64,000 bases of DNA, taken from NCBI GenBank assembly GCA_023269615.1, contig JAHFSY010000008.1:68052-132051 (forward strand), written 5' to 3'. This DNA is from Verrucomicrobiota bacterium (GTDB taxonomy: Bacteria > Verrucomicrobiota > Verrucomicrobiia > JABWAM01). The notes below the pieces were generated by a model, which worked only from the letters and a program-made list of their open reading frames with translations, made no database searches and was not told the DNA's origin. The translations under genes and the position numbers were made by a program. This document shows, piece after piece, positions 13,118-61,929 of this stretch; position 1 is the first letter of the stretch; the number at the start of each line of letters is the position of its first letter.

Positions 13118-14170
13118 ATGAACATCACCAGCGAACCGTGGGGCATGCATGACGGAAAGAATGTCGAGCTGTTCACGCTTGAAAACAAAAACGGCGTCAG
13201 GGCAAAAATCACAAGCTACGGAGGAACCATCGTATCGCTGAAAGTGCCGGACAAGCAGGGCCGGTTTGCCGACGTGGTGCTGGGCTACGACAAGCTGGAG
13301 GATTATGTGAAGAGCCATGCGTTTTTCGGCGCGATCGTCGGCCGTTATGCAAATCGCATTGCGAATGGAACATTCACGCTCGAGGGCAGGGAATACAGGC
13401 TGGCGGTCAACAACGGCCCGAACTCGCTGCACGGCGGAAAGGTGGGGTTCGACAAAAAAGTGTGGTCCCCGCAGAAAGCCTGTCATCCCAGCGCAGCCGG
13501 CTTGGAACTCACCTACACCAGCCCCGACGGCGAAGAGGGCTATCCCGGCACCCTCAAGTGCAAGGTGACCTACCTGCTCACCAACGACAACGAACTGCGC
13601 ATCGAATACCACGCGACGACCGACAAGGCGACGGTGTTGAATCTGACCAACCACAGCTATTTCAACCTCGCGGGCGAAGGCAGCGGCTCCGTCCTCGACC
13701 ATCACATCATGATCAACGCCGATTACTTCACGCCCGGCAACGCGGACCTCATCCCCAGCGGCGAGAAGGAGTCCGTGGCCGGAACACCCATGGACTTCAC
13801 GAAGATGCGGTGCATCGGAGAGCGCATTGATGAAGACTACGAGCCGCTCAAGTTCGGCATGGGCTACGACCACAACTACATCATCTCGGGCGGGTCCGGC
13901 CTGAAGACTGCAGCAAGGGTATGGGACCCGCAATCCGGCCGTACAATGACCGTGGAAACAACCGAACCGGCGGTGCAGTTCTACACAAGCAATCACTTGA
14001 AGAAAATGACCGGCTGCAAGAACGGCCACGCCTACGACTTCCGCGATGCGCTCTGCCTGGAGACACAGCACTACCCTGACAGCCCCCATCATCCGAATTT
14101 TCCATCGACGGTGCTCGTCCCCGGTGACACCTACCAGCAGTCGACTGTTTATGCTTTCACCGCCGATTGA
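13118..14170 (+). CDS. galM: aldose 1-epimerase (galactose mutarotase)
   Basis: Mutarotase signatures (NNGPNSLHGG, EEGYPG, conserved His/Glu region). It follows the SDR gene by 12 bp. Confidence 0.85.
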   Translation: MNITSEPWGMHDGKNVELFTLENKNGVRAKITSYGGTIVSLKVPDKQGRFADVVLGYDKLEDYVKSHAFFGAIVGRYANRIANGTFTLEGREYRLAVNNGPNSLHGGKVGFDKKVWSPQKACHPSAAGLELTYTSPDGEEGYPGTLKCKVTYLLTNDNELRIEYHATTDKATVLNLTNHSYFNLAGEGSGSVLDHHIMINADYFTPGNADLIPSGEKESVAGTPMDFTKMRCIGERIDEDYEPLKFGMGYDHNYIISGGSGLKTAARVWDPQSGRTMTVETTEPAVQFYTSNHLKKMTGCKNGHAYDFRDALCLETQHYPDSPHHPNFPSTVLVPGDTYQQSTVYAFTAD

Positions 14171-15347
14171 CTCCGTCCCTGCGGAGTTGGGGCAGGATGT
14201 TTTGGTGGATATATTCGCTGATGAGTTCTCCGGCGCAGCGATGTCCATTTTCATTCCAATGGCCACAGCCCAGGGTGGTGTTGGAAAATCCATGCAGGAA
14301 GAGATGCTCACGATCCGCCAGCCGTTGAAGCGGGCGTACAAGCGACAACTCCGCGATATGGTTTCGACGGCAAAATTCCTCGATGCGATCATCGGGATAA
14401 AACAGGGAAGCCGCCAGCCTCGCTCGCAACGCGCAGTCGGGATGGACCTGGATGGGATTGCTGAGGGTGACCACGAGGAGCCTTGACCCATCGGCCTTCA
14501 CCTCTTCATCGAGCTTTGCAATGAGCGCTTCGGTTACACGCCACGCATCGGACCACGCCTCATCGTGGGGTTCCAAATAGACGCCATCATTCAGGCCGCC
14601 CGGATTATTTCCTGCCGGGTGCATTGCCTGAACGAATCGAGATTTATACTCGTAGGCAAATTGAGCCAGATAGGATGCGTCCAGTATATGCTGAATGAAA
14701 CGGGTGCGTCTCGAAGTAAGCTGCCGGTATTGGGGCGACGCGAGAAAGGAATCATCCTCTTCCAGTCGATTTTCATGACAAACGAAAAATGGGCGTGTGC
14801 GTTCGCGCTCAAGCGCACGCGAGTTTTCGCGGATGTCATTGCCAGTGAAGACGGCAAGAACGACCAGGTCCGGCGAATAATGACGGACGCAGTGTCGATA
14901 TGCGAGCAACTCCTGGGCCGTACCGTAGCCGGACACTCCGAAGTTCAAAACCTCCACGGGATCGTGCTGGGAGTCCACGGCGAGACGCTTGATCAAATCA
15001 CCTCCAATCACCTGGCAAAGCGAATTTTCCCAAGAAACATGAAATGCCTCCACGAACGAATCGCCGAGCACGGCGATGCGCAACACTCCGCGTGTTTTTT
15101 TGAGCGAGCGCTCCCGATCATGCCAACCCTGGCTGTTGATTTGCACATGGGAATGCCCCTCCTTGGAGTAGGATGCGCAGATGCCTGGTCGTAGCGACGC
15201 GCCCAGATGCAGGTCTGGCCTGTAGAAACCCGGGTAGGAAATCCCCATGAGCCGCAACGCAATTTCCAGAATTCCCATTCCCCCGATCAAGCCGATCGTG
15301 ATTGCCACACACCGGAATATGACTGGCTTGTGGTAGGGCGCGACCAC
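14157..15347 (-). CDS. SGNH/GDSL-type hydrolase with N-terminal TM anchor
   Basis: Block I VLGDSFVE, block II GVSGYG, block III GND. The ORF runs to 15740, but that would overlap the upstream gene (which ends at 15436). The likely start is the GTG at 15345-15347 just before the TM helix, though it is uncertain. Confidence 0.5.
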   Translation of the reverse strand: MVAPYHKPVIFRCVAITIGLIGGMGILEIALRLMGISYPGFYRPDLHLGASLRPGICASYSKEGHSHVQINSQGWHDRERSLKKTRGVLRIAVLGDSFVEAFHVSWENSLCQVIGGDLIKRLAVDSQHDPVEVLNFGVSGYGTAQELLAYRHCVRHYSPDLVVLAVFTGNDIRENSRALERERTRPFFVCHENRLEEDDSFLASPQYRQLTSRRTRFIQHILDASYLAQFAYEYKSRFVQAMHPAGNNPGGLNDGVYLEPHDEAWSDAWRVTEALIAKLDEEVKADGSRLLVVTLSNPIQVHPDCALRARLAASLFYPDDRIEEFCRRNHIAELSLVRPLQRLADREHLFLHGFSNTTLGCGHWNENGHRCAGELISEYIHQNILPQLRRDGVNRR

Positions 15348-15419
15348 CGGGCGCACCGCTGCGCAGAGGACGGCCCGGCGGTCCGTCCCTACCTCGGCGC
15401 GGCTATTTTCCGGACACGC
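15332..15419. repeat. GC-rich palindromic repeat, family GGTAGGG...CCCTACC, copy A
   Basis: About 90% identical over ~88 bp to 36828..36915. The arms are GGTAGGGCGCGACC(A/G)CCGGGC and GCCCGGCGGTCCGTCCCTACC. Confidence 0.7.
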
Positions 15420-28831: not shown

Positions 28832-28894
28832 TTCACCGCAGGCTGTAGGTGGCCTCGCTGAGGCCGCCCTCTTCCCCCCGCATAGCAGTGAATT

Positions 28895-28979
28895 CTTGTA
28901 GGAGCGGCTGTCAGCCGCGACCGGGAGACAGGGCAACCGGGGCCCTCGCCCCGGTCGCCGATGGCATCGGCTCCTGCAA
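28895..28979. repeat. REP-like palindromic repeat, family CTTGTAGGAGCSGCTGTCAGCSGCGACCGG
   Basis: Two head-to-head palindromic units, GCGGCTGTCAGCCGC and GCCGATGGCATCGGC, in convergent intergenic DNA. Same family as 61567..61643. Confidence 0.65.
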
Positions 28980-28996
28980 CCCGCATCGGAGGCAGG

Positions 28997-30100: not shown

Positions 30101-30306
30101 GGGTATGTGTTGTTGTTGGACATACCCTCGTTCCCCCACCTTAAACCGGGATTAAATCAGGATTAGTTTTCTTTCATCCAGTCGGTTCGCTGACAACGAC
30201 CTGAAAGCGCAGGGATCCCGGGGGATCAAGCATGCGTCCCCAATCCGATGTAGCCACGCTCGCCAAAGCGTGGCCCCCGCCCCCATCCGCGTTCTGGCGA
30301 ACGCGG

Positions 30307-31209
30307 CTACATGTTCCGCAACCGAACCAGCCTCTCCGCGTTGCGATGGTAAATCTTCTCAACGACCTCCGACGGGAGGTCGAGCGTTTTCATGAAATCG
30401 TGCAGATCCTGCCCGTAATAATCCCGCGCGAAAAACAGGCGGTCCTGGTAACGCTTCAAAAATTCCACCGCATGAACGGGGTCTCTTTTCAATGCCGCCA
30501 ATCCCGACCCCGCCGAAAGGTCGGCGTATAAATTGGGACTCCTGTCGAGCAAGTCGTAAAGCCTCCCCCTTCCCTTGATCGGGCCAGACGGATACATCAC
30601 CGGATGATCCGCCGCATCGCCGCTGATTTCCCTCCAAAAGCCCGGCGCGTGACCGATGAAAATCGTTTCGGGACACGCCTTCAACGCGCGCTCCAGGTTT
30701 TCCGCCGTGCCACCGTACCAGTCGGGTTGATACACGCTTTTTCCATCGATCCGCAGGTAGGGAACATCCAGATGCAGCACGACCGGCAACTTCAACTCTC
30801 CGGCCACGCGAAACAGCTCCAGCGATCGCGGATCATCAAACGGGATTCGAAATTTCCATTCGCCGCACACGCGCACATCGTGGGTCTTCACCGCCTCGCG
30901 CAACATCGCGGGCGCGCTCGGGTTGGCGGGATGCGGACAATATCCCACCACAAATCGATCCGGATAATGCTGGCGCGCCAGAAGCAGGTCCCGCAACAAA
31001 ATCCCCGCATGCGTCCCGTCCTCGCGCATATTCAGCGGGTTGAGACACTTGTGGTAGACCTCGTTGTCCTCGCAACGCGGAATCTCCCAGCTCAAGAGCC
31101 ACGCGTACTCGATCCCGTGCGCGTCCATGTCCGCAATGAGACCCTTGTCATCCCTCCCATGCCAGAACACATGCTGGTGCGTGTCAATGATGCGCGATGG
31201 TTTGATCAT
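30307..31209 (-). CDS. amidohydrolase-family metal-dependent hydrolase (TIM barrel)
   Basis: DTHQHVF metal-binding HxH at the N-terminus and a later HxxxHLD...D pattern. The ORF extension to 31302 crosses a repeat element and is judged non-coding. Confidence 0.7.
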   Translation of the reverse strand: MIKPSRIIDTHQHVFWHGRDDKGLIADMDAHGIEYAWLLSWEIPRCEDNEVYHKCLNPLNMREDGTHAGILLRDLLLARQHYPDRFVVGYCPHPANPSAPAMLREAVKTHDVRVCGEWKFRIPFDDPRSLELFRVAGELKLPVVLHLDVPYLRIDGKSVYQPDWYGGTAENLERALKACPETIFIGHAPGFWREISGDAADHPVMYPSGPIKGRGRLYDLLDRSPNLYADLSAGSGLAALKRDPVHAVEFLKRYQDRLFFARDYYGQDLHDFMKTLDLPSEVVEKIYHRNAERLVRLRNM

Positions 31210-31228: not shown

Positions 31229-31342
31229 GCCACGGATGGAACAGGGATGAAACACGGATTTCGTTCCGCCACGGCGGGAGTGCGACCCATTGATGAGAAC
31301 AAGGGATTCCGTATCCGTGTTTCATCCGTGTCAATCCGTGGC
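31229..31342. repeat. MITE-like element with inverted terminal copies of GCCACGGATGGAACAGGGATGAAACACGGAT
   Basis: Terminal copies at 31229-31259 (+) and 31311-31342 (inverted) flank a 51-bp spacer that contains CCGCCACGGCGG. Confidence 0.55.
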
Positions 31343-31356
31343 TGAATCCCATTTCT

Positions 31357-35014: not shown

Positions 35015-36181
35015 TCATCGCAGGCCTCCCATTTTCGAAAGCGCCACAAACGCCGCCTGCAACGAGGGCGCGGCGAAGAAGACCCAGCCGACGCACACAA
35101 AGAGAAAGGTTGCCACGCGCGACAATCCATCCCAAACCATCGCACCCGGCCATGGCGCGCGCCCCCCTCGCCACGTGCGGAAGGCATGCCACGCCACCAG
35201 CCCGGCACCATGCCATAATCCCCACGCAACGAAATTCAATCCCGCGCCATGCCACAGGCCGCACACCGCCATCACGAACGCGAGATTGAAAATCACGCGT
35301 CCCCGAGAGGTCCGGCTTCCGCCCAGTGGAATGAAAAGATAATCACGGATCCAGCTGCTCAACGACATGTGCCAGTTCCGCCAGAACTCGGAGATGTTCC
35401 GGCGCCCGTACGGAAAATTGAAATTCTCCGGCAGCCGGTAACCCAGCAACAAGCCGCACCCGATCGCGATGTCCGAATACCCCGAGAAATCAAACAGGAT
35501 CTGCACCGCGTACGCAAATGTCGCCTTCCACAAATCTCCCGCGCTCGCCGCGGCCGGGTCGGCGAGCGCCTTCGCGAGAAGCGCAAATGTGTCGGCCAGC
35601 ACCAACTTCTTGAACAATCCCTGCGCGATCCGCCATCCAGCCTCGGTCCAGGGCACATCCCCCGCCGCCAACGCCTGCTGCCGTTGCGCCTCGAAAAACT
35701 GCCAGCGTTTGATCGGCCCGCTCACCATCGAGGGAAAAAAGAAAATGAATGTCATGTACGGCCCCAGCCGTCCCGCCGCCGCGCGCCCCATCCGCACGTC
35801 CACGAGATAATGAACAAACTCAAACGTAAAAAATGAAATCCCCAACGGCACCAACCCCATCGGAATTTTTTTTGAATACGCCGCCTCCCAATCCCCCCCG
35901 GCCATCGCGCCAAAAAAATGACGGTACTTGAACCACGCCAGCACACCGACGCAACCTGCCAGCGCCACCATCCACCGGCCCCGCCCCGCCTCGCGCGCAG
36001 CCCACCACGTCAACAAAGTCACCGCCAGCAACAGTGGCAGAAAGGGCGGATAGGCGTAGCCGAAAAAAAAGACCCCGCTCGCCGCGAGAAATCCCTGGCG
36101 CCATCGTCCCGACGGCGAAATCCAGAACCCGGCGCACACCAGGCACATGAACAAGGCAAAACTCCACGTATTGAAGATCAT
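35015..36181 (-). CDS. MBOAT-family membrane-bound O-acyltransferase (AlgI/DltB/PatA-like)
   Basis: Multi-TM protein with the conserved His region (WRNWHMSLSSWIRDYLFIPLGG). Its start overlaps the stop of the SGNH gene (ATGA). Confidence 0.8.
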   Translation of the reverse strand: MIFNTWSFALFMCLVCAGFWISPSGRWRQGFLAASGVFFFGYAYPPFLPLLLAVTLLTWWAAREAGRGRWMVALAGCVGVLAWFKYRHFFGAMAGGDWEAAYSKKIPMGLVPLGISFFTFEFVHYLVDVRMGRAAAGRLGPYMTFIFFFPSMVSGPIKRWQFFEAQRQQALAAGDVPWTEAGWRIAQGLFKKLVLADTFALLAKALADPAAASAGDLWKATFAYAVQILFDFSGYSDIAIGCGLLLGYRLPENFNFPYGRRNISEFWRNWHMSLSSWIRDYLFIPLGGSRTSRGRVIFNLAFVMAVCGLWHGAGLNFVAWGLWHGAGLVAWHAFRTWRGGRAPWPGAMVWDGLSRVATFLFVCVGWVFFAAPSLQAAFVALSKMGGLR

Positions 36182-37473
36182 TGTTTCCCCTCCTTGTCCA
36201 CCCAACCCAACTCCCGGATCTTTCGCTCCATCAGCGGCATCATCACATCCGCCATCCGACGGTGCCCCTCGTCGGTCAAATGCAGGTTGTCGTAAAACAG
36301 GGAGGAATCCAGCGCACCGAAAAGGTTCTCGAAATCTGACGTCCGCTGCTTCGTCCAAGCCACCTCCTGCGCCACCACCGTCTTATATTCGGATTCCTTC
36401 ATCGCAGTCTTCAGCAGCAACGGATTGACGGGACAAAGATAAACAAGCGACTGCGCCCCGCCTCTCGCTTTCACGTCCGCAAGCAACCGCTCGAGACAAA
36501 TGTGGTCCGTGGAACCGGTCTCGATCCGAAATGGATGCTCGCGACGGAATCTTTCGAAGCGCGCCTTGTCCCACAATTCCGGCCTCCACGTCTCGGAACG
36601 CGATTTGCGCGTCAGCCATTCCGCCCATACATCCGGCATCCATGAAGCCTGACGAAACCGGTCCCGTGAAACCAGCGTCCCGCCCGCATCCGTGCCGCCG
36701 AAAAGAAACATGTTCATCCGCTCGCGATAGCGGATCATCGGAATCCAGCGCTCCGCCACGCGCGACAATTGCTCCTCGTTCTCCCCTCGCCATTTCATCC
36801 ATCCGGACTGCGTCTGCTCATTTAAAGGTAGGGCGCGACCGCCGGGCGCGCCGCTGCGCAACGGACGGCCCGGCGGTCCGTCCCTACCTCGAACGGATGA
36901 TTCCCCGGACACGCTCGCGCATTTCTCCAACCACGACGTCTCGGCAAGCGGCCCATCCGTCCCATGGGCCCATTCATCCGGGCGAATCTGCAAAATCACC
37001 AGCGCACCAGACGGCAGATCAAGCTGGCGCAACAACGCCAGCTTTTCCGGCGCATTGGCCCCGGCCACGGAAAAATTGTCCACCGCGATGTCGTCCGACG
37101 GAAACCGTTCCCGCAGTTTCTTCTCAAGCAGCGCGCAAAATGTTTTGGAAGCCGGCGTGCGCCCGCCAAAACTCACGGAATCGCCGATCCACACGATGTG
37201 ATGCCCCCTGTCCAGACGCCTCCAGGCGCGAAACGCATTCCAGCTTCGTTCATCCGAAATCCCAAAGGCACGGTCCATGGTACGAAGATGCGGATTCAAC
37301 CGCGAAAAAAAATCATCGCCACAAAGCGCCAGCCAGGCATTGAGCAGGACGACAAACAGAAGGGCCCACAACCAGACGGCACGGCGCAAAAAGGGCGCGG
37401 CGCGCCATCGCGCCTCGGCAGGCCGCGCCACCGCAAAATCAGTTTCGGGAAGAGGCTGGCTCATGGTTTCCAT
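36178..37473 (-). CDS. SGNH-hydrolase-type partner of the MBOAT (AlgJ/DltD/PatB-like), carrying an in-frame repeat insertion
   Basis: N-terminal TM anchor, IVWIGDSVSFGG block I, and a C-terminal DNLHLTDEGH block. Residues 194-214 are encoded by the palindromic repeat 36828..36915. Confidence 0.6.
   Translation of the reverse strand: METMSQPLPETDFAVARPAEARWRAAPFLRRAVWLWALLFVVLLNAWLALCGDDFFSRLNPHLRTMDRAFGISDERSWNAFRAWRRLDRGHHIVWIGDSVSFGGRTPASKTFCALLEKKLRERFPSDDIAVDNFSVAGANAPEKLALLRQLDLPSGALVILQIRPDEWAHGTDGPLAETSWLEKCASVSGESSVRGRDGPPGRPLRSGAPGGRALPLNEQTQSGWMKWRGENEEQLSRVAERWIPMIRYRERMNMFLFGGTDAGGTLVSRDRFRQASWMPDVWAEWLTRKSRSETWRPELWDKARFERFRREHPFRIETGSTDHICLERLLADVKARGGAQSLVYLCPVNPLLLKTAMKESEYKTVVAQEVAWTKQRTSDFENLFGALDSSLFYDNLHLTDEGHRRMADVMMPLMERKIRELGWVDKEGKQ
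36828..36915. repeat. GC-rich palindromic repeat, family GGTAGGG...CCCTACC, copy B (inside a CDS, in frame)
   Basis: GGTAGGGCGCGACCGCCGGGCGCGCCGCTGCGCAACGGACGGCCCGGCGGTCCGTCCCTACC plus a shared 3' flank. It matches 15332..15419. Confidence 0.7.
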
Positions 37474-38338: not shown

Positions 38339-38368
38339 GCCACAGATGCACACGGATGAAACACGGAT
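38339..38368. repeat. solo copy of the CACGGATGAAACACGGAT motif (GCCACAGATGCACACGGATGAAACACGGAT)
   Basis: It lies 25-54 nt upstream of the iscX-like start codon, in the same orientation as the other copies. Confidence 0.55.
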
Positions 38369-38404
38369 ATTTTTTTATTCCGCGCTCCACGTTCCGCGTT
38401 TCCA

Positions 38405-39535
38405 TCATCCCGCTTCGGATGCCGCCTTGATCAACTCCTCCTCCGTCCATGGCTGGCCCTTGGGGGTACGGACATTGGGCAGCGCGGACATGCGCTTGAT
38501 GAGGTCGTCCTTCACCACGCACTTCTGGTATGCCTCCATCGGTTCCACCATTCCCTTGGACACATAATCGAGGAGCGAATCGTTGAGCGAACACATGCCC
38601 TCCTTTCGCCCGGTCTGGATCAGCATCGGGATCTGGTGAATCTTGCCCTCGCGGATGTTGGCGCCAAGGGCATGGCTGCCCATCAGAATCTCCAGGGCGG
38701 CCACGCGGCCTCCACCCTTCTTCTTGCAAAGCGTCTGGGCGATGACACCCTTCAAACCCTCGGCAAGGCCCGAACGCACCTGCTGCTGTTGCTCGGTCGG
38801 AAACTGGTTGATCAAACGGTCCACGGTCTGCGCCGCCGTGGTCGTGTGCAGCGTTCCAAACACAAGGTGGCCCGTCTCCGCCGTCTCGAGGGCGATCATG
38901 ATCGTCTCCAGGTCGCGCATTTCACCGACGAGCACGATGTCGGGGTCCTCGCGCAACGCGGCGCGCAGCGCGCGCTTGAAACTGCCGGTGTGCTCGTGCA
39001 CCTCGCGTTGGTTGACGAGGCACTTCTTGTTGGGATGCACAAACTCGATCGGGTCCTCGATCGTGAGGATGTGGTCCTCTCGGCTGTCATTGATGAAATC
39101 AATCATCGCCGCCAGCGTGGTGGATTTTCCGCTGCCCGTGGGGCCCGTCACAAGGACCAATCCCTTGGTAAGGAAACAAAGTTTCTTGATGGGTTCCGGC
39201 AGGTGCAGATCGGCAAAGGTCAGGATTTTTGATGGAATCAGGCGGAAGACGGCGCCGATGCCCTTGCGGTCGGCAAAAATATTGCAGCGATAACGAGCCA
39301 CGCCTTCGAGCGAATAGGCGAAATCGGTGTCCTTGCATTCCTCCCATTCCTGGCGGTTGCGCTCGGGAAGGATCTCGTAGATGAGGGACTTGACGATGTC
39401 GGTGGTGAAAAGCTGGTCGCTCACAGCCGTCATGGTCCCCGAAATGCGGAACATCGGAAAATGCTCGCTGGAAAGGTGAAAGTCGGAGGCCTTTTGTTCA
39501 ACCATCGCGCGAAAGTAATCATCGAGTGCAGCCAT
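38405..39535 (-). CDS. pilT: type IV pilus retraction ATPase, PilT/PilU family (paralog 1)
   Basis: PilT N-terminal domain (ASDFHL), Walker A GPTGSGKSTT, Asp box, Walker B and His box. Start chosen at MAALDDYF. Confidence 0.85.
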   Translation of the reverse strand: MAALDDYFRAMVEQKASDFHLSSEHFPMFRISGTMTAVSDQLFTTDIVKSLIYEILPERNRQEWEECKDTDFAYSLEGVARYRCNIFADRKGIGAVFRLIPSKILTFADLHLPEPIKKLCFLTKGLVLVTGPTGSGKSTTLAAMIDFINDSREDHILTIEDPIEFVHPNKKCLVNQREVHEHTGSFKRALRAALREDPDIVLVGEMRDLETIMIALETAETGHLVFGTLHTTTAAQTVDRLINQFPTEQQQQVRSGLAEGLKGVIAQTLCKKKGGGRVAALEILMGSHALGANIREGKIHQIPMLIQTGRKEGMCSLNDSLLDYVSKGMVEPMEAYQKCVVKDDLIKRMSALPNVRTPKGQPWTEEELIKAASEAG

Positions 39536-39587
39536 GAAATCAAAAATTACCAGACCACCCCGATTTGTCACCCCAAAACTGGTGTGG

Positions 39588-39793
39588 AAGCACGGATGCG
39601 GAGCCCTGGGTCCAGTTTCTCCGCAGATTAACGCAGGATCACGCAGATTTCTGAACGGCATTCAACCGTGCCATTTTCAAGCGTCACCTCGGTGGCGGTT
39701 GAAAATGACACGGTTGGGATCAAGGGCAGGCTTTGCGACTTTGCGACTTTGCGCGAAACCTTCTGAAAATCTGCGTCCATCTGCGAAATCTGC
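39588..39793. repeat. ~200-bp nested imperfect palindrome with GACTTTGCG direct repeats (MITE-like)
   Basis: Outer arms CTCCGCAGATT...CGCAGATTTC and GAAAATCTGCG...ATCTGCGGAG; inner arms CCGTGCCATTTTCAA and TTGAAAATGACACGG; three copies of GACTTTGCG; then CTTTGCGCGAAAC. Confidence 0.55.
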
Positions 39794-39826
39794 GGAGAAC
39801 CCGGGACCAAGGGCTCCGGTCCACAC

Positions 39827-40273
39827 TTACTTCGCAGCAGTGTGCTTTGCGATTTCCTCGACGTAGCGGTCGTTGGATTGCCGCAGATGATCGAGCACGG
39901 TCTTCAACAGCTGGATCGTGACGTACGCGGGCTCCTCGTTCAGGGCCCGCAACAGGACCGTGCTGGGGATTTTCGCAATGTGGACAAAGGAGGCCGCCAC
40001 CGCCGACGCGCTGCGCGGCTTGTCATCCAAAATGCCCATTTCGCCAAAATATTCCCCCTCGTTCACCGTGGCGATCGTCACGTCCTTGCCATCCTTGACG
40101 CTCTTGACCAAATCCACTTTTCCCTCGATCAGCAGGAAGACCTGGTCGGAAGGATCGCCCTCCTTGAACAGGATCGTCTTCTCATCGCAAAAAAAATCCG
40201 ACGCGTACTCGGCCAGCGACTTGGCGCGCGCCTCGCTGAAATAAGTGAAGAAGCGATGGGAGAGCAGGTTCAT
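39827..40273 (-). CDS. stand-alone cyclic-nucleotide-binding domain protein (no DNA-binding domain)
   Basis: cNMP-binding beta-roll signature (GEYFGEMGILDDKPRSASAVA). 148 aa. Confidence 0.75.
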   Translation of the reverse strand: MNLLSHRFFTYFSEARAKSLAEYASDFFCDEKTILFKEGDPSDQVFLLIEGKVDLVKSVKDGKDVTIATVNEGEYFGEMGILDDKPRSASAVAASFVHIAKIPSTVLLRALNEEPAYVTIQLLKTVLDHLRQSNDRYVEEIAKHTAAK

Positions 40274-40365
40274 GGGATTGGGGGCGTTGGATGAAGGAAC
40301 CCTAGATCATCCCACGGAAAGTTTCAAAGAAAAAGGCCTCCATCGAATACCGCACCTTCATCTTT

Positions 40366-41496
40366 TCATTTCCCCTCGGCCGAGGCCTTGACCAGCTCAT
40401 CCTCCGTCCATGCCTTTCCACCAGGCCCCCGCACATTGGGCAGATCGCCCATGCGCTTGATCAGCTCATCTTTCGCCACGGCTCGGCGGTAGGCCTCGGT
40501 GGGCTCGATGACCCCCTTGGAAACATAATCCAGCAGCGCGTCGTTCAGCGAACACATGCCTTCTTTTCGCCCGGTCTGGATCAGCATGGGAATCTGCTGG
40601 ATCTTGCCTTCGCGGATGTACGCGCTGAGCGCCGCGCTGCTGAGGAGAACCTCCATGGCGGCCACACGGGTGCCGTCTTTCGTCTTGCACAGGGTCTGGG
40701 AAATCACACCCCTTAATCCCTCAGCCAGCGCAACGCGAACCTGAGATTGCTGGTCGGAGGGGAACTGGTTGATCAGTCGGTCAATCGTGCCGGGCGCCGT
40801 CGTGGTGTGCAGCGTCCCGAATACCAGGTGCCCCGTCTCCGCGGTCTCAATCGCAATCATCACGGTCTCCAGGTCGCGCATCTCACCGATCAGCACGACA
40901 TCCGGATCCTCTCGCAGCGCCGCCCGCAGCGCGCGTTTGAAGCCGTCGGTGTGAATGTGCACCTGACGCTGGTTGACAAGGCACTTTTTGTGGGGATGAA
41001 CGTATTCGATCGGATCCTCGATCGTGATGATGTGATCGCTGCGGTTTTGATTGATGAAATCAATCAGCGTCGCAAGCGTGGTGGTTTTGCCGCACCCGCT
41101 CGGCCCCGTGGCCAGCACAAGCCCCTTCGTGAGAAAGCAAAGTTTCTTGATGCACTCGGGCAGGCGCAGCTCCTCAAAGGTAAGCACACGCGATGGAATC
41201 AGGCGGAAATTTGCCCCGATCCCATCCTTCGTCTGCGATACATTGCAGCGATAACGCCCCACATCGGGAATGGCATATGCAAAATCCGTGTCATGCATCT
41301 CCTCCCATTCGAGGCGATTGCGCTCCGGCATGATCTCGTAAATAAGCTGCTGGGCCATCTCGGCCGTCACAATTTCATCGCTGACCTTCGTGATCACCCC
41401 ATAAATGCGGAACATGGGATAATGCCCGCTGACCAGGTGAAAGTCAGACGCCGTCTGGTCCACCATCGCGCGAAAATAATCGTCAAGTGCAGCCAC
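40366..41496 (-). CDS. pilT: PilT/PilU-family ATPase (paralog 2)
   Basis: Collinear with paralog 1 (MAALDDYFRAMVDQTASDFHL...GPSGCGKTTT...). Confidence 0.85.
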   Translation of the reverse strand: MAALDDYFRAMVDQTASDFHLVSGHYPMFRIYGVITKVSDEIVTAEMAQQLIYEIMPERNRLEWEEMHDTDFAYAIPDVGRYRCNVSQTKDGIGANFRLIPSRVLTFEELRLPECIKKLCFLTKGLVLATGPSGCGKTTTLATLIDFINQNRSDHIITIEDPIEYVHPHKKCLVNQRQVHIHTDGFKRALRAALREDPDVVLIGEMRDLETVMIAIETAETGHLVFGTLHTTTAPGTIDRLINQFPSDQQSQVRVALAEGLRGVISQTLCKTKDGTRVAAMEVLLSSAALSAYIREGKIQQIPMLIQTGRKEGMCSLNDALLDYVSKGVIEPTEAYRRAVAKDELIKRMGDLPNVRGPGGKAWTEDELVKASAEGK

Positions 41497-41660
41497 GGGT
41501 GAGATCAGCTACAAGCCATAAGCTTTAAGCTGTAAGTTTCTGAATTCGGATTTGTTCTCTGCATGGTTAAAATCATTCGAAGGGCAAGTCATTGATCTGG
41601 AATAATCATATTTTCATAAAAGCTTATGGCTTAAGACGTATAGCTTACAGCTCTTTCCCC

Positions 41661-42788
41661 TCACTCCTCGGCCGCCGCCTTGATGAGGGCGTCCTCGGTC
41701 CATGGCTGCCCCTTGTGATCGCGGATGTTTGGAAGGGCCGCGATGCGCTTGATGATGTCATCCTTCACCACGGCTTTCTGGTACGCCTCGGGGGCTTCCA
41801 CGATACCCTTCGAAACGTAATCAATGAGCGAATCGTTCAGCATGCACATGCCCTCCTTGCGACCGCTCTGCATGAGCATCGGGATCTGGTGAATCTTGCC
41901 CTCGCGGATGTTCGCGCCCAGCGCGTGGCTGCCCATCAGGATCTCCAGCGCCGCCACGCGCCCGCCCCCCTTCTTCTTGCACAAGGTCTGCGCCACCACG
42001 CCCTTCAACCCCTCCGCCAGGCTCGCCCGGATCTGTGGCTGCTGCGGCGCGGGGAACTGGTTGATCAACCGGTCCACCGTGCTCGGCGCGGTGGACGTGT
42101 GCAGCGTTCCAAACACCAGGCTCCCCGTCTCCGCCGTTTCCAGGGCGATCATGATCGTCTCCAGGTCGCGCATCTCACCGACCAGCACAATGTCCGGATC
42201 CTCGCGCAACGCCGCCCGCAACGCGCTCTTGAAGCTCTTCGTATTCACGTGAACCTCCCGCTGATCCACCAGGCACTTCTTGTGCGGATGCACAAACTCG
42301 ATCGGATCCTCGATCGTGATGATGTGATCGGTCCTCGTATTATTGATGAAGTCAATCATCGCCGCCAGCGTGGTGGACTTGCCGCTGCCCGTCGGCCCGG
42401 TCACAAGCACCAGCCCCTTCGTGAGAAAACAAAGCTTCTTGATCGCCTCGGGAAGATTCAACTGCTCGAAGGTCAGGATCTTCGATGGAATCAGGCGAAA
42501 GACTCCGCCAATCCCGTACTGGTCCGCAAAGACGTTGCACCGATACCGCCCCACTCCCGTCACCTCATAGGCAAAATCCGTGTCATGCGATGTCTCCCAC
42601 TCGACCCGGTTGCGCTCGGGCAGGATTTCGTAAATCAGGCTGCGCACATCCTCCTCCGAAAATGCCTGGTCGCTCACCGGCGTCATGGTGCCGGAAATTC
42701 GGAAATTCGGAAAGGTGCCGCTGGTCAGGTGAAAGTCCGAAGCCTTCTGATCCACCATCGCTCTGAAATAGTCGTCGATCGCCGCCAT
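41661..42788 (-). CDS. pilT: PilT/PilU-family ATPase (paralog 3)
   Basis: MAAIDDYFRAMVDQKASDFHL...GPTGSGKSTT...; full length. Confidence 0.85.
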   Translation of the reverse strand: MAAIDDYFRAMVDQKASDFHLTSGTFPNFRISGTMTPVSDQAFSEEDVRSLIYEILPERNRVEWETSHDTDFAYEVTGVGRYRCNVFADQYGIGGVFRLIPSKILTFEQLNLPEAIKKLCFLTKGLVLVTGPTGSGKSTTLAAMIDFINNTRTDHIITIEDPIEFVHPHKKCLVDQREVHVNTKSFKSALRAALREDPDIVLVGEMRDLETIMIALETAETGSLVFGTLHTSTAPSTVDRLINQFPAPQQPQIRASLAEGLKGVVAQTLCKKKGGGRVAALEILMGSHALGANIREGKIHQIPMLMQSGRKEGMCMLNDSLIDYVSKGIVEAPEAYQKAVVKDDIIKRIAALPNIRDHKGQPWTEDALIKAAAEE

Positions 42789-42941
42789 GCGACAAAAGCT
42801 AAATTACACTTCAAATGAAGTCAGCCAAAAACTTCACTTTCCAGCCGGTCGGCGACCCGTGATGCAGGCATTTTTTGACAGGATTTACAGGACGAACAGG
42901 ATTTTCGGGGCGGCAATGATTGTGGCAGGATCCACGGGATT

Positions 42942-42995
42942 GCTTCGCGCACCGGATATCGGGACGCTGGCGTCCCGATATCCGGTGCGCGAAGC
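42942..42995. repeat. perfect 54-bp palindrome (25-bp arms, 2-nt centre)
   Basis: GCTTCGCGCACCGGATATCGGGACGC-TG-GCGTCCCGATATCCGGTGCGCGAAGC. It lies between the thioredoxin-like gene and pilT paralog 3. Confidence 0.7.
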
Positions 42996-43065
42996 TGGGT
43001 TGGTCTAAAATCCAGTGAATTCTGTAAATTCTGTCAAAAAAAAATCAGGAGTCCGTAGAGACAGA

Positions 43066-44360: not shown

Positions 44361-44390
44361 GCCACGGATGAACACGGATGAAACACAGAT
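44361..44390. repeat. solo copy of the CACGGATGAAACACGGAT motif (GCCACGGATGAACACGGATGAAACACAGAT)
   Basis: It lies upstream of the thioredoxin-like gene and downstream of the giant gene. Confidence 0.5.
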
Positions 44391-44427
44391 AAGCCAGTGC
44401 TTGGCACGCCAATGGTTCCCACAAACA

Positions 44428-47400
44428 TCATTCCTTGGCCCCCGCTTGTTTCAGGGCATCTGCAATATCCGCGCGCTTGATCCGGATGGCGATGGAAAGC
44501 GGCGTTTCACCTCTTTGACTCCGGGCGCGGGCGTCCGCGCCGGCCTTGAGCAGTAACCGTACGATCAGCAGGTCTCCCTGTTCCACCGCAGCCATCAACG
44601 GGGTTGTCCCATCGGAATCAGATACGTTCGGTTTAGCCCCCTTCTCCAGAAGCAGCATAAGGAGCTCAGGATGTTTGCGCGTGATGGCGCTCAGGAGCAT
44701 CCGCCCTCCCAAACCTTTTACGTCCGCCCCCGTGTTGATCGCCGCTTCCGCCTTCTCATAACTTCCCTCCGTCACGGCGGCATCCAGGTCCGTGGATGCC
44801 TTAAACAACACATCCCCGCTTTGGGCACCTGCCTTCTTGAGAATCTCCGCGACTTCAGGGTGCCTCTGCTGTCTGGCCACATCCAGGGCTGTGCAAGGCG
44901 AAAAAATCGCGCCATTGTCATAGCAGGCGAGAAAGTCGGGGTTGGCTCCCTTGGAAAGCAGCAGTTTCACGTTTTCCGTTGCTCCGAAGGCGGCCGCATT
45001 GAAGATCGCGGTGCGTCCCCCATCGCCGCGCGAGTTCACATCGCCGCCCTGCTCAATCAAGTATTTCAACCCTTCGGATTTCTGTTGCTTGACAATTTCC
45101 TGCATGGGCGGCCCCGTCTTCGCGCCCTTGGAGATCAGGAATTTCGCAATTTCCCATTGTTGATTCAATACCGCAATGCAAAGCGGCGTCAGTCCTTCAA
45201 CCGTGCTTTCCGTCTCATTGTAAGCCATGGGCGCATCCAGTTGCGAACCACGGTCAATCAAAAACTTCGCCATCTCGAGATGTCCATTTTCCGTCACGGT
45301 ATGGAGCGCCGTGCAACTTTTGTTTGTCTTTGAATTCACGTTGGCGCCATGGGCAAGAAGCGCTTCCACCACTTCGGGATGGCAGCCATCGGCCGCAAAC
45401 ATCAGCGGCGTGCAGCCGATCCTGGACCTCGCATTTACATCCGCACCCTTTTCCAAGAGCAACTGAACCATCTCGAGGTGCCCCGCAGTTGAAGCGAAAA
45501 TGAGCGGCGTCCAATCATTCTCATTCCGCCCATCCACCTTCGCCCCCTTTACCAGCAACTCTCTGACCCCAGCCAGGTCCCCTTTCTGGGCGGCGGCAAG
45601 CAACGCCATGCCCAGATTTTCCGCAGTCACCTTCACCCCGGCCTTCTCCAACATTGTCATGATTTCCGTCTCGTTGTCCCTCTTGTTGTCCGGAGCCGTC
45701 CCTTGCGCGATGGAAAGGGCGTTCTTCCCATCCTTGTTGCTGACATTCACATCGGCACCGGCCTCGATCAGCACGCGAGAGATCGAGAGATTGGAGGATT
45801 CCACGCCGGCGAGAAACGGGGTCATTCCCTCGGCGTCAACCGCATTGAGGTTTGCGCCCTTGGCCAGCAGGAACTCAACGCTTTCCAGGTTGCCATGCCT
45901 TGCGGCAAGGATCAGAGACGTCGAGTTCTTCCCGTCGTGAGCGTCCACCTGGGCGCCACGGTCGAATGACGTTTTCAACTTCGGCACATTACCCGTTTCT
46001 GCGGCGTCCAACAGGGCCTCATCCGCAGTCTCGATAGGCGGGACGGATTTCGACAGGCCCGATTGGTGCCACCACTGCTCCCACAGGGCATAATGATCAC
46101 CAAACGCCTGGCCCGTCAGTTTCTCCAGGGCGTCAATGAGTTCATTCTGCACCGCCGGCTTGTTATACACGATAGAACCGTTGAGAAACGTGCTGGAGGC
46201 ATCGTCCGGCCTCCAAAACACCTCCAATAAATACGGAATGGCCGCCGGATCACCGATCCGGCCCATGGCCCCGGACACTTTCTCCTCGGAAAAAGCGTCT
46301 CGGGTCAGCGGTTTTGCGACAATGGGAATCAGCCTCTTCTCCGGGAAATACTTTCCGATATTGTCAACGACTTCTCGTGCGCGGGGGTTTTTCGCCGCGT
46401 CCCGCATGGTTTGATCCAGATAGGCCAGGGCATCCGAATCACCCGCCCTGCACAAGACCGCCAGCAGGATCAAATCCGCATCGTAACCGTCCTTGTAACT
46501 GCGGGACGATTTGACGATGGAAATGATTTCCGGGTCATAGTCGCCCGCCATGAGCAAATCCAATGCCGCCTCGTTGCAAGGCGGGGAATTGCGATCATTC
46601 AAGATGGCCCGAAGGCGGGGCTTCGCTTCCACGCCGCCCAGCAAAATCACCGCGCGAACGGCCTCCTGACGCACTCCAACATCCGGATCGCCGAGAAGCA
46701 CGGCCACCTGATCGAGATGATCCCTGCTTTTCAGCTTTCCAAGTTGTCTCACGGCAATACCCCTCACACGGGGTTCCGCATCCGACAAGTACCCGAGAAA
46801 GTCGGGAACGAATGATTTCAAGCAGATCTCGCCGAGGACATCCAGCGCCTCGGCACGCGCGTCCCCACTCTCGGAGCGGCTCGCCGCAATCTTGATCAGA
46901 TAGGGAACAGCCCTCTCCCTGCCTTTGACGTCCGGGTAGCGAAGGCCCCCAAGCAGAAACCGGCGTCTTTTCTTATCACCTCCCGCGTCTTGAGTAATCG
47001 CAATGAATTCATCCACATGGCCTAGACCTCCTTTCCCTCCGGAGGTTGTCACAAGCATACTTGCCTCAAATTTCTCCAGGGAAACCATGTGGGAAGGCGC
47101 GGCATGGTTGAAGCTGCGAAAATCCTCAATAGGAAGGGGCAGCACCTCGCGGGGAACGAATAAAATACACTTGTTTTGAGGGTCATATACCATGCTGGGA
47201 ATTTGCCCGTTGAAATCCGCTTCCATTTCGATGGAAGACAAGGATCTTCGGAGCACCGTCCCGTTGTCCCTCGACAACTCGAAGAGTTCGCCAAGGGAGT
47301 TGCCCACGTAAATCCTCCCCCCCAGAGCCACAGGCACGGCAATGGGTGTCCAATCCTCAAACTTCCACCGGACCTTGCCCGTGGCACGATCCAGGGCGTA

Positions 47401-58523: not shown

Positions 58524-58636
58524 GCCACAGATGGACACGGATGAAACACGGACTTGTTGGCGCTTGCCACGGCAAGCGCCGTCATGCTGAATCAGCTTGC
58601 TGAGCATCATCCGTGTAAATCTGTGTTGATCTGTGG
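58524..58636. repeat. MITE-like element with inverted terminal copies of the CACGGATGAAACACGGA motif
   Basis: GCCACAGATGGACACGGATGAAACACGGA at 58524-58552 and its inverse ATCCGTGTAAATCTGTGTTGATCTGTGGC at 58608-58636. They flank the hairpin GGCGCTTGCCACGGCAAGCGCC. Confidence 0.55.
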
Positions 58637-58659: not shown

Positions 58660-59661
58660 TCATTTGCTTGGGTCGGAAAGGATCGTGTCGGGGCTTGTGG
58701 CAATGCGGGCCAGCTCGAGAAGGCGGAGCTGGGAGAGGGGCGTTTCTGCGAGATCGGAAATCATCGCGGGACGCGCCAGCACGAGTACGCCGGCGCCCAT
58801 CCGCGTGGCACTCGCCGAGAGAGCGGCGTCGCTGAAGGGCTGGATCCACACGACGCCTACACCTCGCTCCGCCAGCTTCTTTACATTTTCACGGAAACCA
58901 GATGGCATTGTATCCTTCGTGGGAAATGGGCCGAGGATGGCGAGCTTTCCGTGGAATGCGTCGAAGCTCGTCCCCGCCGTGAGATCCTCGACCTCAACCT
59001 TGAGCGCTTCGAGGAGTGGTTTCATTTTTCCCGATGGATCCCAGATGCCGATGGGCTTGTCACCCCCGAGCGTCTTGAGCGTCTTGAGGGCATCGGCGGG
59101 ACATGCAATCAGGTCGGTTTTTCCGAGACGTCCATCCTTGTCATCCGTCCATTGCAACTGGAAGCGCAAGATGGTTTTTACCTCGGGGCAGTTCACCTCG
59201 AAATTTTCAAGGACGGTCTGGCCGGCGAGGATTTCAAGTTTTTTCCAGCCTTGGACCTCGCCCACGGGGGCCAGCGAGGAGGAGCTGGCTTGGAAGAGTC
59301 TCGTGCGAATCTCCGTTTCGGATTTCTGGCCGCCCCGGTTGTGAAACGTCACATGGATCGTTTGCGCCTTGCCGGCAAAAACAACCTGCGGAGTTTCATC
59401 AGGAACGAGTTCGATCTGTGCGTGGGTGGCGAGGGGCAAGATGAGAAGAAGGCATGCGAACACGGTTCCGAAAGGTAGGGCGCGCTCGCCGAGCGCGCCG
59501 TGGGGTTGCAGGGAAAAGAGCGACTCTACCAAATTTGACGCCTTCTCCCCAATACGGCGCGCTCGGCGAGCGCGCCCTACCAGGAATGTGGATTGAAGTG
59601 GGTGATTTTTCATGAAAACCTGATGGCTGAGAGCTGATGGCTGAGAGCTTCTTCCGATCAT
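58660..59661 (-). CDS. secreted hypothetical protein
   Basis: Signal peptide FGTVFACLLLILPLATHA. No recognisable domain. The start is uncertain because the 5' region contains palindromic repeat 59474..59581. Confidence 0.45.
   Translation of the reverse strand: MIGRSSQPSALSHQVFMKNHPLQSTFLVGRARRARRIGEKASNLVESLFSLQPHGALGERALPFGTVFACLLLILPLATHAQIELVPDETPQVVFAGKAQTIHVTFHNRGGQKSETEIRTRLFQASSSSLAPVGEVQGWKKLEILAGQTVLENFEVNCPEVKTILRFQLQWTDDKDGRLGKTDLIACPADALKTLKTLGGDKPIGIWDPSGKMKPLLEALKVEVEDLTAGTSFDAFHGKLAILGPFPTKDTMPSGFRENVKKLAERGVGVVWIQPFSDAALSASATRMGAGVLVLARPAMISDLAETPLSQLRLLELARIATSPDTILSDPSK
59474..59581. repeat. palindromic repeat of the GGTAGGG...CCCTACC family (variant with 26-bp arms)
   Basis: Arms GGTAGGGCGCGCTCGCCGAGCGCGCC and GGCGCGCTCGGCGAGCGCGCCCTACC, separated by 56 bp. 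Confidence 0.65.
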
Positions 59662-61643: not shown

Positions 61644-61654
61644 ACCAAAATACA

Positions 61655-61921: not shown

Positions 61922-61929
61922 GGATTTCC

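Follow-up and report, generated by a model that had tools for sequence, protein, structure and literature searches.

In a 64-kb stretch of DNA from a Verrucomicrobiota bacterium (64,000 nucleotides, referred to here as the window), an 88-nt repeat with a palindromic core lies inside the coding sequence of an SGNH-fold protein. This raises the question of what the element is, how it could have reached this position and whether the gene that carries it can still give rise to a working enzyme. The best explanation, to which we assign a probability of about 0.85, is that a REPIN landed in a length-variable region of a DltD-like SGNH gene, where it is tolerated as a passenger loop. The central reading of the first-pass annotation, that of a GC-rich palindrome which lies in frame and lengthens the protein by about 21 residues between conserved blocks, is supported by the present analysis. 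The features are collected in Table 1.

Table 1. Positions of the repeat copies, their parts and the neighbouring genes in the window
Feature	Position	Strand	Description
Host gene	36178..37473	-	431-aa membrane-anchored SGNH-fold, DltD-like protein
MBOAT-family O-acyltransferase gene	35015..36181	-	PF03062, 65.5 bits
REPIN core	36827..36888		62 nt; two GTAG-headed REP units in inverted orientation; halves 48/62 self-complementary
Left REP unit	36827..36853	+	GGTAGGGCGCGACCGCCGGGCGCGCCG; GTAG head, 9-bp stem with A.G mismatch, 3-nt loop
Spacer between REP units	36854..36861		CTGCGCAA, 8 nt
Right REP unit	36862..36888	-	GGTAGGGACGGACCGCCGGGCCGTCCG, read on the minus strand; second stem variant
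Tail beside the 36827 core	36889..36914		26 nt; minus strand encodes ASVSGESSVR
Second REPIN core copy	15332..15393		Units 15332-15358 (+) and 15367-15393 (-), spacer CTGCGCAG
Tail of the second copy	15394..15419		26 nt
Second SGNH/GDSL gene, start uncertain	14157..15308	-	First start past the element is GTG 15306-15308
Third REPIN, same family	59474..59581		Arms GGTAGGGCGCGCTCGCCGAGCGCGCCGT at 59474-59501 (+) and 59554-59581 (-)
ORF with signal-peptide-like segment just after the third REPIN	58660..59661	-	Pfam: no match

The 88-nt repeat has two copies in the 64-kb window, at 36827-36914 (previously given as 36828-36915, one base off) and at 15332-15419. Aligned without gaps, they agree at 75 of 88 positions (85%; blastn E = 6e-24), and their 62-nt palindromic cores agree at 58 of 62; the identity of about 90% reported earlier is therefore right for the core alone and too high for the full length. 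The core can be read as a REPIN, that is, two inverted GTAG-headed REPs (repetitive extragenic palindromes) of 27 nt each which stand 8 nt apart, and since the right unit is a second stem variant the doublet at 36827 is a hetero-dimer. In the third copy 28-nt arms, perfectly complementary, are separated by a 52-nt spacer. All three copies are inverted doublets, no other doublet of this REP family being visible in the window, and the GGTAGGG termini that had been described as common to them were found at the opening of all six units, in each case ahead of a GC-rich hairpin with a 9-bp stem and a 3-nt loop. The core folds as a long hairpin (-63.5 kcal/mol for the coding-strand RNA, z = -4.5), and the hairpin of the third copy reaches -86.5 kcal/mol (z = -11). 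There are four exact matches of GGTAGGGCGCG in the window, every one at the three named sites, and with one mismatch allowed the count rises to 5 (1.3 expected), a number that no shuffle out of 100 attained. A generic scan for GTAG followed by any hairpin, which gave 28 matches against about 46 in shuffles, proved too loose a criterion.

The same REP unit was found at no fewer than 117 loci, as at least 128 units, mostly in Verrucomicrobiota, Lentisphaerae and Kiritimatiellae; spread over more than 100 other genomes, it also lies between genes and is arranged as singlets, doublets and tandem (head-to-tail) arrays. Among the matches listed, an inverted head follows within 124 nt for 57 of 125 units (46%), compared with 4.6% in random windows, and the lengths of the doublets elsewhere peak at 54-63 nt, the element in the window measuring 62 nt. 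Among the same matches, the variant met most often in Verrucomicrobiota genomes other than this one is a 26-mer identical to that of the left unit, and the arm of the right unit shares first place among the partner arms with one further variant (4 of 55). The stem was examined in 41 distinct partner arms from other genomes, a sample independent of the search pattern. The head does not vary among them, the 9-bp stem is 76.7% paired (56.9 +/- 1.8% in shuffles, 0/500) and 74 double-sided changes occur (27.5 in shuffles, 0/500). The stem covariation score is 0.455, and no slid register exceeds 0.233. At the 117 listed loci, 28% of the units lie 100 or more codons deep in an open frame; for positions drawn at random from these loci the figure is 53%, so that the unit is depleted deep within ORFs. 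In other genomes, in-frame copies of this family fall within Pfam domains, namely those of PepA, AcrB, a GH106 enzyme and a carboxyltransferase, and one intragenic REP singlet has been retained at orthologous positions in two genomes. The host proteins are mutually unrelated and between them use the unit in three different reading frames. The sequence of the unit itself is almost identical across several PVC lineages.

No gene for a REP-associated tyrosine transposase (RAYT) is present in the 64-kb window; two of the loci that carry the REP in other genomes link the family to such genes. At one of them (L031) an ORF of 162 aa (6896-7381) is flanked by REPs on both sides, at 6869-6894 (+) and 7382-7407 (-), and at another (L100) a homologous ORF has a REP 21 nt upstream of its start. 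With Pfam Y1_Tnp the candidates are marginal (19.9 and 30.2 bits, and no match for L100); their identity as RAYTs is settled by the NCBIfam equivalog model NF047646, which gives 85.0 bits for L031, 83.9 for L100 and 91.5 for the ORF of a further locus, L052, at a cut-off of 80. Additionally, the L031 ORF matches E. coli TnpA-REP (PDB 4er8) at 3.8e-8.

REPINs are non-autonomous and, where studied, are copied in trans by a single-copy RAYT of the Y1/HUH type, to which the single-stranded REP hairpin and its GTAG head are bound; REPIN-RAYT systems are currently regarded as lineage-specific and extragenic. The element described here resembles these systems in that its inverted doublet forms one long hairpin, in its GTAG head and in the presence of REP-flanked RAYT genes (L031, L100). 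It is unlike the systems studied in Gammaproteobacteria, where REPINs are described as essentially extragenic, in having an intragenic copy, and unlike them also in its 8-nt spacer and in the one-sided flank outside the doublet which is common to two copies. The Rickettsia palindromic elements (RPEs), with which the element had been compared before, are palindromic repeats found in frame inside functional genes of AT-rich alphaproteobacterial genomes, to whose products they add a peptide. The comparison is apt for the behaviour, an in-frame palindrome that adds a peptide, and fails for the identity, which is that of a GTAG-headed REP doublet of a RAYT-associated class. Short RPEs carry a CGTC tag (Di Nocera et al. 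2013, PMC3733652) and the tag here is GTAG, so judged by the tag the element does not belong to them. For REPIN-RAYT systems in general we refer to Bertels and Rainey 2011 (PMC3116915), and for E. coli TnpA-REP and BIMEs to Messing et al. 2012 (PMC3479197), where it is described that TnpA-REP binds and cleaves single-stranded REP and that a RAYT needs the conserved GTAG head for both binding and cleavage.

The closest precedent is found in the survey of Di Nocera, De Gregorio and Rocco (2013, BMC Genomics 14:522, PMC3733652), which described intragenic GTAG REPs. These are most numerous in the verrucomicrobium Opitutus terrae (families GTAG-17 to -20), and over half of them are dimers or groups coding in frame for 20-30 aa. 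As in those REPs, the unit here is a short stem-loop, rich in GC and tagged with GTAG on the 5' side, that occurs as singlets, dimers, clusters and hetero-dimers, and the distribution likewise appears mostly intergenic with many in-frame intragenic dimers, in a host of the phylum Verrucomicrobia. The O. terrae peptides (e.g. VGPALAAG...PPY) are of the same type as the VGRA... and ...GRALP stretches found here, the families being compared through the listed peptides only. The differences lie in the stem, which reads GGTAGGG-CGCGACCGCCGGGCGCG-CC or GGTAGGG-ACGGACCGCCGGGCCGT-CC, in the genome, which is a different one from an uncultured organism, and in the DltD-like SGNH host gene, which is not among the genes listed in that study. 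The locus is therefore a clean new example of an in-frame behaviour already described for this bacterial group.

The element is located, as had been claimed, in the middle of a single uninterrupted ORF of 431 aa, and the public gene call (P0001, 366 aa, starting at M66) also reads through it. Reading-frame preservation was likewise confirmed: the element starts exactly on a codon boundary and the conserved blocks continue in the same frame on both sides. Read on the minus strand, the doublet accounts for residues 196-216 (GRDGPPGRPLRSGAPGGRALP, 21 residues). It is flanked in one frame by the conserved SGNH positions, with S99 of the GDS block and N133 on one side and D395/H398 on the other, and homologues match residues 85-160 and 233-420, also in one frame. 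In an alignment of 29 homologues (A1) four residues (G97, S99, H398, G403) do not vary, and three more (D98, N133, D395) are nearly invariant. The characteristic features of the SGNH family are thus present, namely the GDS serine of block I, the Gly and Asn of blocks II and III and the DxxH of block V. The Pfam matches of the protein fall just under the cut-off (32.5 against 32.9 bits); its AlphaFold model (pTM 0.74) has a DltD-like SGNH alpha/beta fold, and its best PDB matches are the DltD structures 3bma, 6pfx and 6o93 (E about 1e-5). The MBOAT gene lies immediately downstream and overlaps the host stop, and its product is likely a functional partner of the SGNH protein.

None of the 29 aligned distant homologues carries the peptide of residues 196-216. 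The region is length-variable among them and several have long inserts of their own there. In the loop modelling suggested in the first-pass annotation, AlphaFold predicts disorder (pLDDT under 50) for residues 196-228, the drop setting in precisely with the first REP codon, and a model from which the 21 residues were deleted folds equally well (pTM 0.73, same order of elements). The nearest homologues are 23-44% identical: a word-indexed search, run both with the complete protein and with a version lacking the 21 residues, and an exhaustive phmmer search of 1.84 billion representatives both returned only the protein itself and homologues of at most 44% identity. Since no orthologue above about 45% identity offers an empty site, we infer the insertion event from the distant alignment and from the presence of the element elsewhere.

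On these grounds the following course of events can be proposed. A RAYT would have mobilised the doublet in the source genome, and one copy may have landed in, or been copied into, the length-variable surface region of the SGNH gene. This copy could survive because the putative insert leaves the reading frame intact (63 nt, or 21 codons, if the T after CCCTACC is counted with it, 62 and 88 not being divisible by 3), because the frame used has no stop codon, and because the Gly/Arg/Pro-rich peptide forms a predicted disordered loop that would leave the fold undisturbed. With frame kept, stop avoided and loop disordered, the gene most likely still makes a working enzyme with a passenger loop, its expression and the neutrality of the loop being presumed.

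It has to be considered whether the gene is instead dead or impaired, the REPIN having been inserted recently, with a frame that stayed open by luck and a protein that is misfolded, unstable or poorly translated. The open frame alone is weak evidence against this: the doublet has two open frames out of three on either strand, the remaining one carrying TAG, and a random insertion would leave the gene in frame and free of a stop in about 2 of 9 cases. Moreover, the strong mRNA hairpin of about -60 kcal/mol is real and long-term retention of the insert is shown by no orthologue. We nevertheless regard this alternative as unlikely, since the catalytic and oxyanion residues are all intact, frameshifts and stops are absent on both sides of the element, the insert occupies a region that varies freely in length and in which some homologues have long inserts of their own, and the protein gives equally good models with and without the 21 residues. 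Furthermore, the two close copies differ at 4 of 62 core positions, which indicates that the insert is not brand new, and the same REP is kept in essential-type enzymes of relatives and at the orthologous site in two genomes. That the hairpin has been recruited, as an mRNA stabiliser, a pause or termination site, a gyrase or IHF site, or as a selected protein loop, is less probable still. Such roles have been assigned to REPs in other bacteria (Di Nocera 2013, PMC3733652), the unit is near-identical across several PVC lineages and the intragenic singlet mentioned above is kept in two genomes; against this, Rfam finds nothing at the element (the only gathering-level match in the window is a tRNA at 611-697), and the unrelated host proteins and the use of three frames argue against a specific peptide function. 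Termination in particular was rejected, as the hairpin is not followed by a terminator-like T-run.

The remaining alternatives concern the origin of the sequence. The terminal inverted repeats of MITEs match those of DDE-type IS elements, and MITEs make target-site duplications. The present element resembles bacterial MITEs (Correia/NEMIS, ERIC, RUP, Nezha) in being small, non-autonomous, hairpin-forming and at times located in or overlapping ORFs, and one might see in it a classical MITE that arose by deletion from a DDE-type IS, instead of a REP/RAYT element: it has inverted-repeat termini, its 62-108 nt overlap the sizes of small MITEs and the one-sided tail could be internal MITE sequence. 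This origin is very improbable, given that none of the three copies is bordered by direct repeats, whether the 62-nt or the 88-nt boundaries are taken, that the supposed terminal repeats are themselves self-complementary GTAG-headed hairpins which also occur as singlets and in head-to-tail arrays, and that the sole transposase found adjoining them is a Y1 RAYT. A 7-of-8 match of GCTCATTT and GCGCATTT beside the 88-nt unit at 36827 was treated as chance because it does not abut the unit and is not repeated at the other copies. The idea that the segment is a native Gly/Arg/Pro low-complexity linker, alike in the two genes through convergence or through gene conversion between SGNH paralogues, could draw on the association of both close copies with SGNH genes and on the varying length of the region among homologues. 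It is effectively refuted by the more than 100 REP copies in other genomes, which like the third copy are unrelated to SGNH and are often intergenic; in addition, the copy at the paralogue lies upstream of the transmembrane start, in a non-homologous position and a different frame, the peptide occurs in 0 of 29 homologues, and a 62-nt near-palindrome is unexpected for a linker.

The insertion of a REPIN into the length-variable region is thus the preferred reading for the host gene, and the other two copies have a different gene context. The second follows the stop of a transglutaminase-like gene (15436) and precedes the transmembrane start of the second SGNH gene, with in-frame GTG codons inside the element (15354-56 and 15345-47) and 24 nt after it (15306-08). 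At the third copy the candidate starts are ATG 59661 and ATG 59613 before the element and GTG 59463 after it, and depending on the start used this REPIN is either in a 5' leader or in an N-terminal extension. The overlap of the second copy with a GTG start and the position of the third within an ORF, both proposed previously, therefore depend on start codons which the sequence cannot fix.

One property, the one-sided 26-nt tail shared by the two close copies, is not predicted by a plain REPIN model. The tails match at 17 of 26 positions and share an identical terminal CCGGACACGC, a word with no further occurrence in the window. Of the 118 loci listed with the REP, none shows the core-plus-tail pattern, and neither this pattern nor that of left arm plus spacer was found in the JGI metagenome contigs searched.

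The known behaviour of such elements is unchanged by this finding. It adds a well-defined REP family with RAYTs (L031, L100) that could serve for studies of REPIN biology outside Proteobacteria, and the locus would be a natural example of a protein that tolerates a 21-residue insertion from a mobile hairpin. It is conceivable, though doubtful, that the near-invariant GGTAGGG-CGCGACCGCCGGGCGCG-CC REP and its RAYT constitute a superphylum-wide REPIN lineage that seeds loops, or a horizontally moving REP/RAYT pair; this would follow if the pattern is due to selection and not to drift plus vertical descent, and if true the tail common to two copies would point to a mode of transposition in which flanking DNA travels with the element. 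The motif spans several Verrucomicrobiota orders and extends into Lentisphaerae and Kiritimatiellae. Copies of the REP were repeatedly seen in frame, in PepA, AcrB, carboxyltransferase, GH106 and rhamnosidase genes as well as in the DltD-like protein described here.

For annotation it follows that GRALP, VGRA and GRARSPSAP stretches in conserved proteins of the PVC group are REP-derived and should thus be taken neither as domains or functional low-complexity linkers nor as evidence of homology between unrelated proteins. The REP-derived peptide also swamps word-based protein searches: with the whole protein at least 8,000 candidates were returned, and 3,353 without the 21-residue peptide.

The in-frame palindromic repeat described by the first-pass annotation was confirmed as an observation, and the analysis supports this reading with the family corrected to a GTAG-REP doublet (REPIN, an inverted pair of REP units). 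The host ORF (36178-37473, minus strand, 431 aa, SGNH-fold and DltD-like) is indeed unbroken across the element, and the public gene call, 366 aa from M66, likewise reads through it. Distant homologues align to residues 85-160 and 233-420, which flank the element and share one frame. Across an alignment of 30 sequences no variation is seen at G97, S99, H398 or G403, and little at D98, N133 and D395; as read from this alignment, the conserved residues form the full SGNH catalytic set. The first base of the element is a codon boundary, and residues 196-216, GRDGPPGRPLRSGAPGGRALP, are encoded by it. This REP peptide was present in none of the homologues of the alignment, and its site is a stretch of freely varying length where several of them carry unrelated inserts. 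The AlphaFold model of the host protein (pTM 0.74, mean pLDDT 75), whose best solved-structure matches are DltD D-alanyl transferases, has a confidence below 50 over residues 196-228, beginning at the first REP codon, and removing the 21 residues gives an equally good model (pTM 0.73, same order of helices and strands). An MBOAT gene directly follows the host gene, a neighbour that the DltD-like fold would fit by analogy with the DltB/DltD pair. A word-based protein search with the REP peptide gave at least 8,000 candidates and 3,353 without it, which implies that very many database 'proteins' hold REP translations.

The repeat spans 36827-36914, starting and ending one base before the 36828-36915 assigned at first, and matches the 15332 copy ungapped (blastn E = 6e-24). 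The approximate 90% identity claimed for this pair compares with 75/88 over the whole repeat and 58/62 over the 62-nt near-palindrome that forms its first part; the second part is a 26-nt one-sided tail (17/26) with an identical end, CCGGACACGC, found nowhere else in the window. The proposed third relative, at 59474, was borne out as two 28-nt arms, perfect complements of each other, with a 52-nt spacer between. All four exact matches of GGTAGGGCGCG in the window lie within these three sites, and five are counted with one-mismatch matches included, against 1.3 expected. Every core is predicted to fold into a single long hairpin, with -63.5 kcal/mol (z = -4.5) for the 36827 copy as coding-strand RNA and -86.5 kcal/mol (z = -11) for the 59474 copy. 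At the 15332 copy, the GTG named in the table is the first start codon past the element and begins the transmembrane segment that a second SGNH gene encodes. In-frame GTGs are also present within the element, so that the start overlap proposed at first is one of two possible arrangements. The ATG upstream of the 59474 copy overlaps the upstream stop as ATGA at 59658-59661, and this copy may lie either in a 5' leader or in an N-terminal extension.

Each core consists of two inverted 27-nt units with a spacer between them, and all units follow one plan, in which G-GTAG-GG leads into a GC-rich stem of 9 bp, frequently with an A.G mismatch, and a loop of 3 nt. The REPs that RAYTs (REP-associated tyrosine transposases, of Y1/HUH type) recognise are defined by their GTAG, conserved at the 5' foot of a hairpin that is short and imperfect. 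In E. coli, binding and cleavage need all four GTAG bases (Messing et al. 2012, PMC3479197). Assignment of the element family to GTAG-REP doublets, REPINs in the sense of Bertels & Rainey 2011 (PMC3116915), is supported at the sequence level. The 26-nt tail falls outside the usual REPIN definition; it was absent beside every unit of other genomes among the loci listed, and from JGI metagenome contigs.

Scanning one genome per species with the pattern GGTAGGGCGCGNNCNCCGNGCGCNCC gave at least 128 units in at least 117 loci. The great majority of those listed come from Verrucomicrobiota, Lentisphaerae and Kiritimatiellae MAGs and a few from other phyla, and their units are found singly, as inverted doublets and in tandem arrays. 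Among the same listed loci an inverted head lies at most 124 nt downstream in 57 of 125 units, compared with 4.6% for random windows; doublets are most often 54-63 nt long (62 nt in the window element); the right arm of the window element recurs exactly as the joint commonest partner arm (4/55, tied with one other variant); and units are depleted at deep ORF positions (28% versus 53% of random positions). The 41 distinct partner arms offer a fair test of structure, since they were not picked by the search pattern. Their GG-AGGG head positions are invariant, 9-bp stem pairing reaches 76.7% against 56.9 +/- 1.8% in shuffles (0/500), double-sided changes number 74 against 27.5 (0/500), and the covariation score is 0.455, any shifted register giving at most 0.233. 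Beneath the fixed head, the conserved feature is therefore the hairpin, and not its exact sequence. A variant of the GGTAGGGCGCG unit was also seen in Rhodocyclales MAGs, where its partner is a GGTAGGGCGGTTTCTCCGAAACCGCC arm; this may reflect a related REP family beyond the PVC group, or else mis-binned contigs.

E. coli RayT, used to probe every open frame in the window and in the loci, matched three ORFs, in L031, L100 and L052, which score 85.0, 83.9 and 91.5 bits, respectively, above the 80-bit NCBIfam equivalog cut-off for REP-associated tyrosine transposase. The L031 protein matches E. coli TnpA-REP (PDB 4er8, E = 3.8e-8), and the REP unit found here directly flanks its ORF on either side as an inverted pair (6869-6894, plus; 7382-7407, minus); L100 has a close homologue with the same REP 21 nt upstream of the start. 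The same probe found no RAYT-type gene in the 64-kb window, which is unsurprising for a single-copy gene. In L031 (6839-7963) a single stop-free frame spans the RAYT gene with the REP on either side of it and runs into a cytochrome-c-like (CxxCH) coding region, and the same bridging was seen for pxpA/B/C-like domains in L021; REPs can thus make adjacent genes look like a single ORF, which can mislead gene callers.

In the best reading, a working gene would have received a REPIN copy in a tolerant loop, resulting in a passenger loop of the host protein. The insert would measure 63 nt, equal to 21 codons, if it includes the T that follows CCCTACC in both the 36827 and 15332 copies. On either strand the doublet can be read without a stop in two of its three frames, the third being closed by the TAG of the head; as the length must also keep the frame, about 2/9 of insertions should leave the protein intact, so such events would not be rare. 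We infer this copying from sequence comparison; no orthologue closer than about 44% identity, and thus no empty site, was found among 15 billion proteins, whether or not the query included the REP peptide. A native linker sequence is excluded, since more than 100 genomes have copies in settings that are unrelated and often intergenic. Silent inactivation of the host gene is disfavoured: its catalytic residues are intact, the insert sits in a loop, the 36827 and 15332 copies already diverge at 4/62 positions, and the same REP is kept inside conserved enzymes elsewhere.

The element might alternatively be a classical MITE, which is not supported, given that no target duplications were found at the copies, that the termini are independent hairpin units occurring singly too, and that the sole associated transposase is of Y1 type. 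Against a regulatory RNA or a terminator stand the lack of an Rfam match and of a T-run after the hairpin, respectively.

Coordinates of the repeats, genes and loci (window positions unless a locus is named)
Feature	Location	Details
Left unit	36827 copy	GGTAGGGCGCGACCGCCGGGCGCGCCG
Spacer	36827 copy	8 nt, CTGCGCAA
Right unit	36827 copy	GGTAGGGACGGACCGCCGGGCCGTCCG, read on opposite strand
Second REPIN copy	15332-15419	within 127 nt between stop of transglutaminase-like gene (15436) and GTG 15306-15308
Third REPIN copy	59474-59581	between ATG overlapping upstream stop and GTG 11 nt past element
Second GTAG-headed REPIN family	61571-61650, 28894-28980	
Third GTAG-headed inverted doublet	30250-30311	ATGTAGCCACGCTCGCCAAAGCGTGG facing CATGTAGCCGCGTTCGCCAGAACGCGG; outside any long ORF
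Dispersed short non-GTAG repeat	31239-31343, 38339-38369, 44361-44391, 58524-58553	CCACGGATGAACACGGATGAAACACGGAT; both orientations
Dispersed repeat	39731-39779, 61926-61963, 62057-62094	CTTTGCGACTTTGCGACTTTGCGCGAAA-like
Inverted repeat pair	42871-43041	GACAGGATTTACAGGA-type, around perfect 26-nt palindrome 42942-42995
PilT/T2SSE-family ATPase genes	38405-42800	three tandem paralogues, 70-80% DNA identity
Very long coding region(s)	44600-57300	minus; 99-nt periodic ankyrin/HEAT-type repeats
RAYT ORF	L031 6896-7381	162 aa; HUH motif PDHLHAL
Leucyl aminopeptidase, Peptidase_M17	L029 5313-6869	same REP family in frame, single Pfam envelope
AcrB	L010 1302-4613	same REP family in frame, single Pfam envelope
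GH106 rhamnosidase	L096 4060-7764	same REP family in frame, single Pfam envelope
Carboxyltransferase	L028 4555-6234	same REP family in frame, single Pfam envelope
GGTAGGGCGCG/GGTAGGGCGGTTTCTCCGAAACCGCC pairing	L030, L070, L079, L087	Accumulibacter MAG
GGTAGGGCGCG/GGTAGGGCGGTTTCTCCGAAACCGCC pairing	L035, L068, L105	Zoogloeaceae MAGs

Prokaryotic REPs have been sorted into GTAG- and CGTC-tagged superfamilies (Di Nocera, De Gregorio, Rocco 2013, PMC3733652). The PVC group has GTAG REPs, and dimers or groups encoding 20-30 aa make up more than half of intragenic REP inserts (PMC3733652), so in-frame intragenic behaviour of GTAG REPs is already known for this group. The supplementary table of that study has 70 O. 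terrae rows, and by the listed peptides the intragenic REP peptides of O. terrae are of the same type as that of the window element. The earlier comparison with Rickettsia palindromic elements was right on behaviour and wrong on family, since RPE-4 and RPE-6, short Rickettsia elements, are CGTC-type REPs (PMC3733652), whereas the present element is of GTAG type. The four in-frame enzyme hosts of the table belong to other PVC genomes. Two 95%-identical rhamnosidase orthologues carry a singlet at the same linker site (L019 6332-6357, L042 4378-4403) with different hairpin-top variants, CTCG versus ATCA. These data may be of use in the annotation of PVC genomes, and provide a defined REP/RAYT pair outside Proteobacteria.

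Among the other repeats of the window, one copy of the second REPIN family is a perfect doublet with CTTGTAGGAGCCGCTGTCAGCGGCGA arms and a 25-nt spacer and the other a hetero-doublet with compensating stem changes, neither being deep within a long ORF. The CTTTGCGACTTTGCGACTTTGCGCGAAA-like repeat includes an inverted pair around a perfect 23-nt palindrome (61993-62041), and the GACAGGATTTACAGGA-type pair stands directly downstream of the pilT-like gene cluster, among whose three ATPase genes there is a cNMP-binding gene. The public call for the very long coding region includes a 2391-aa product.
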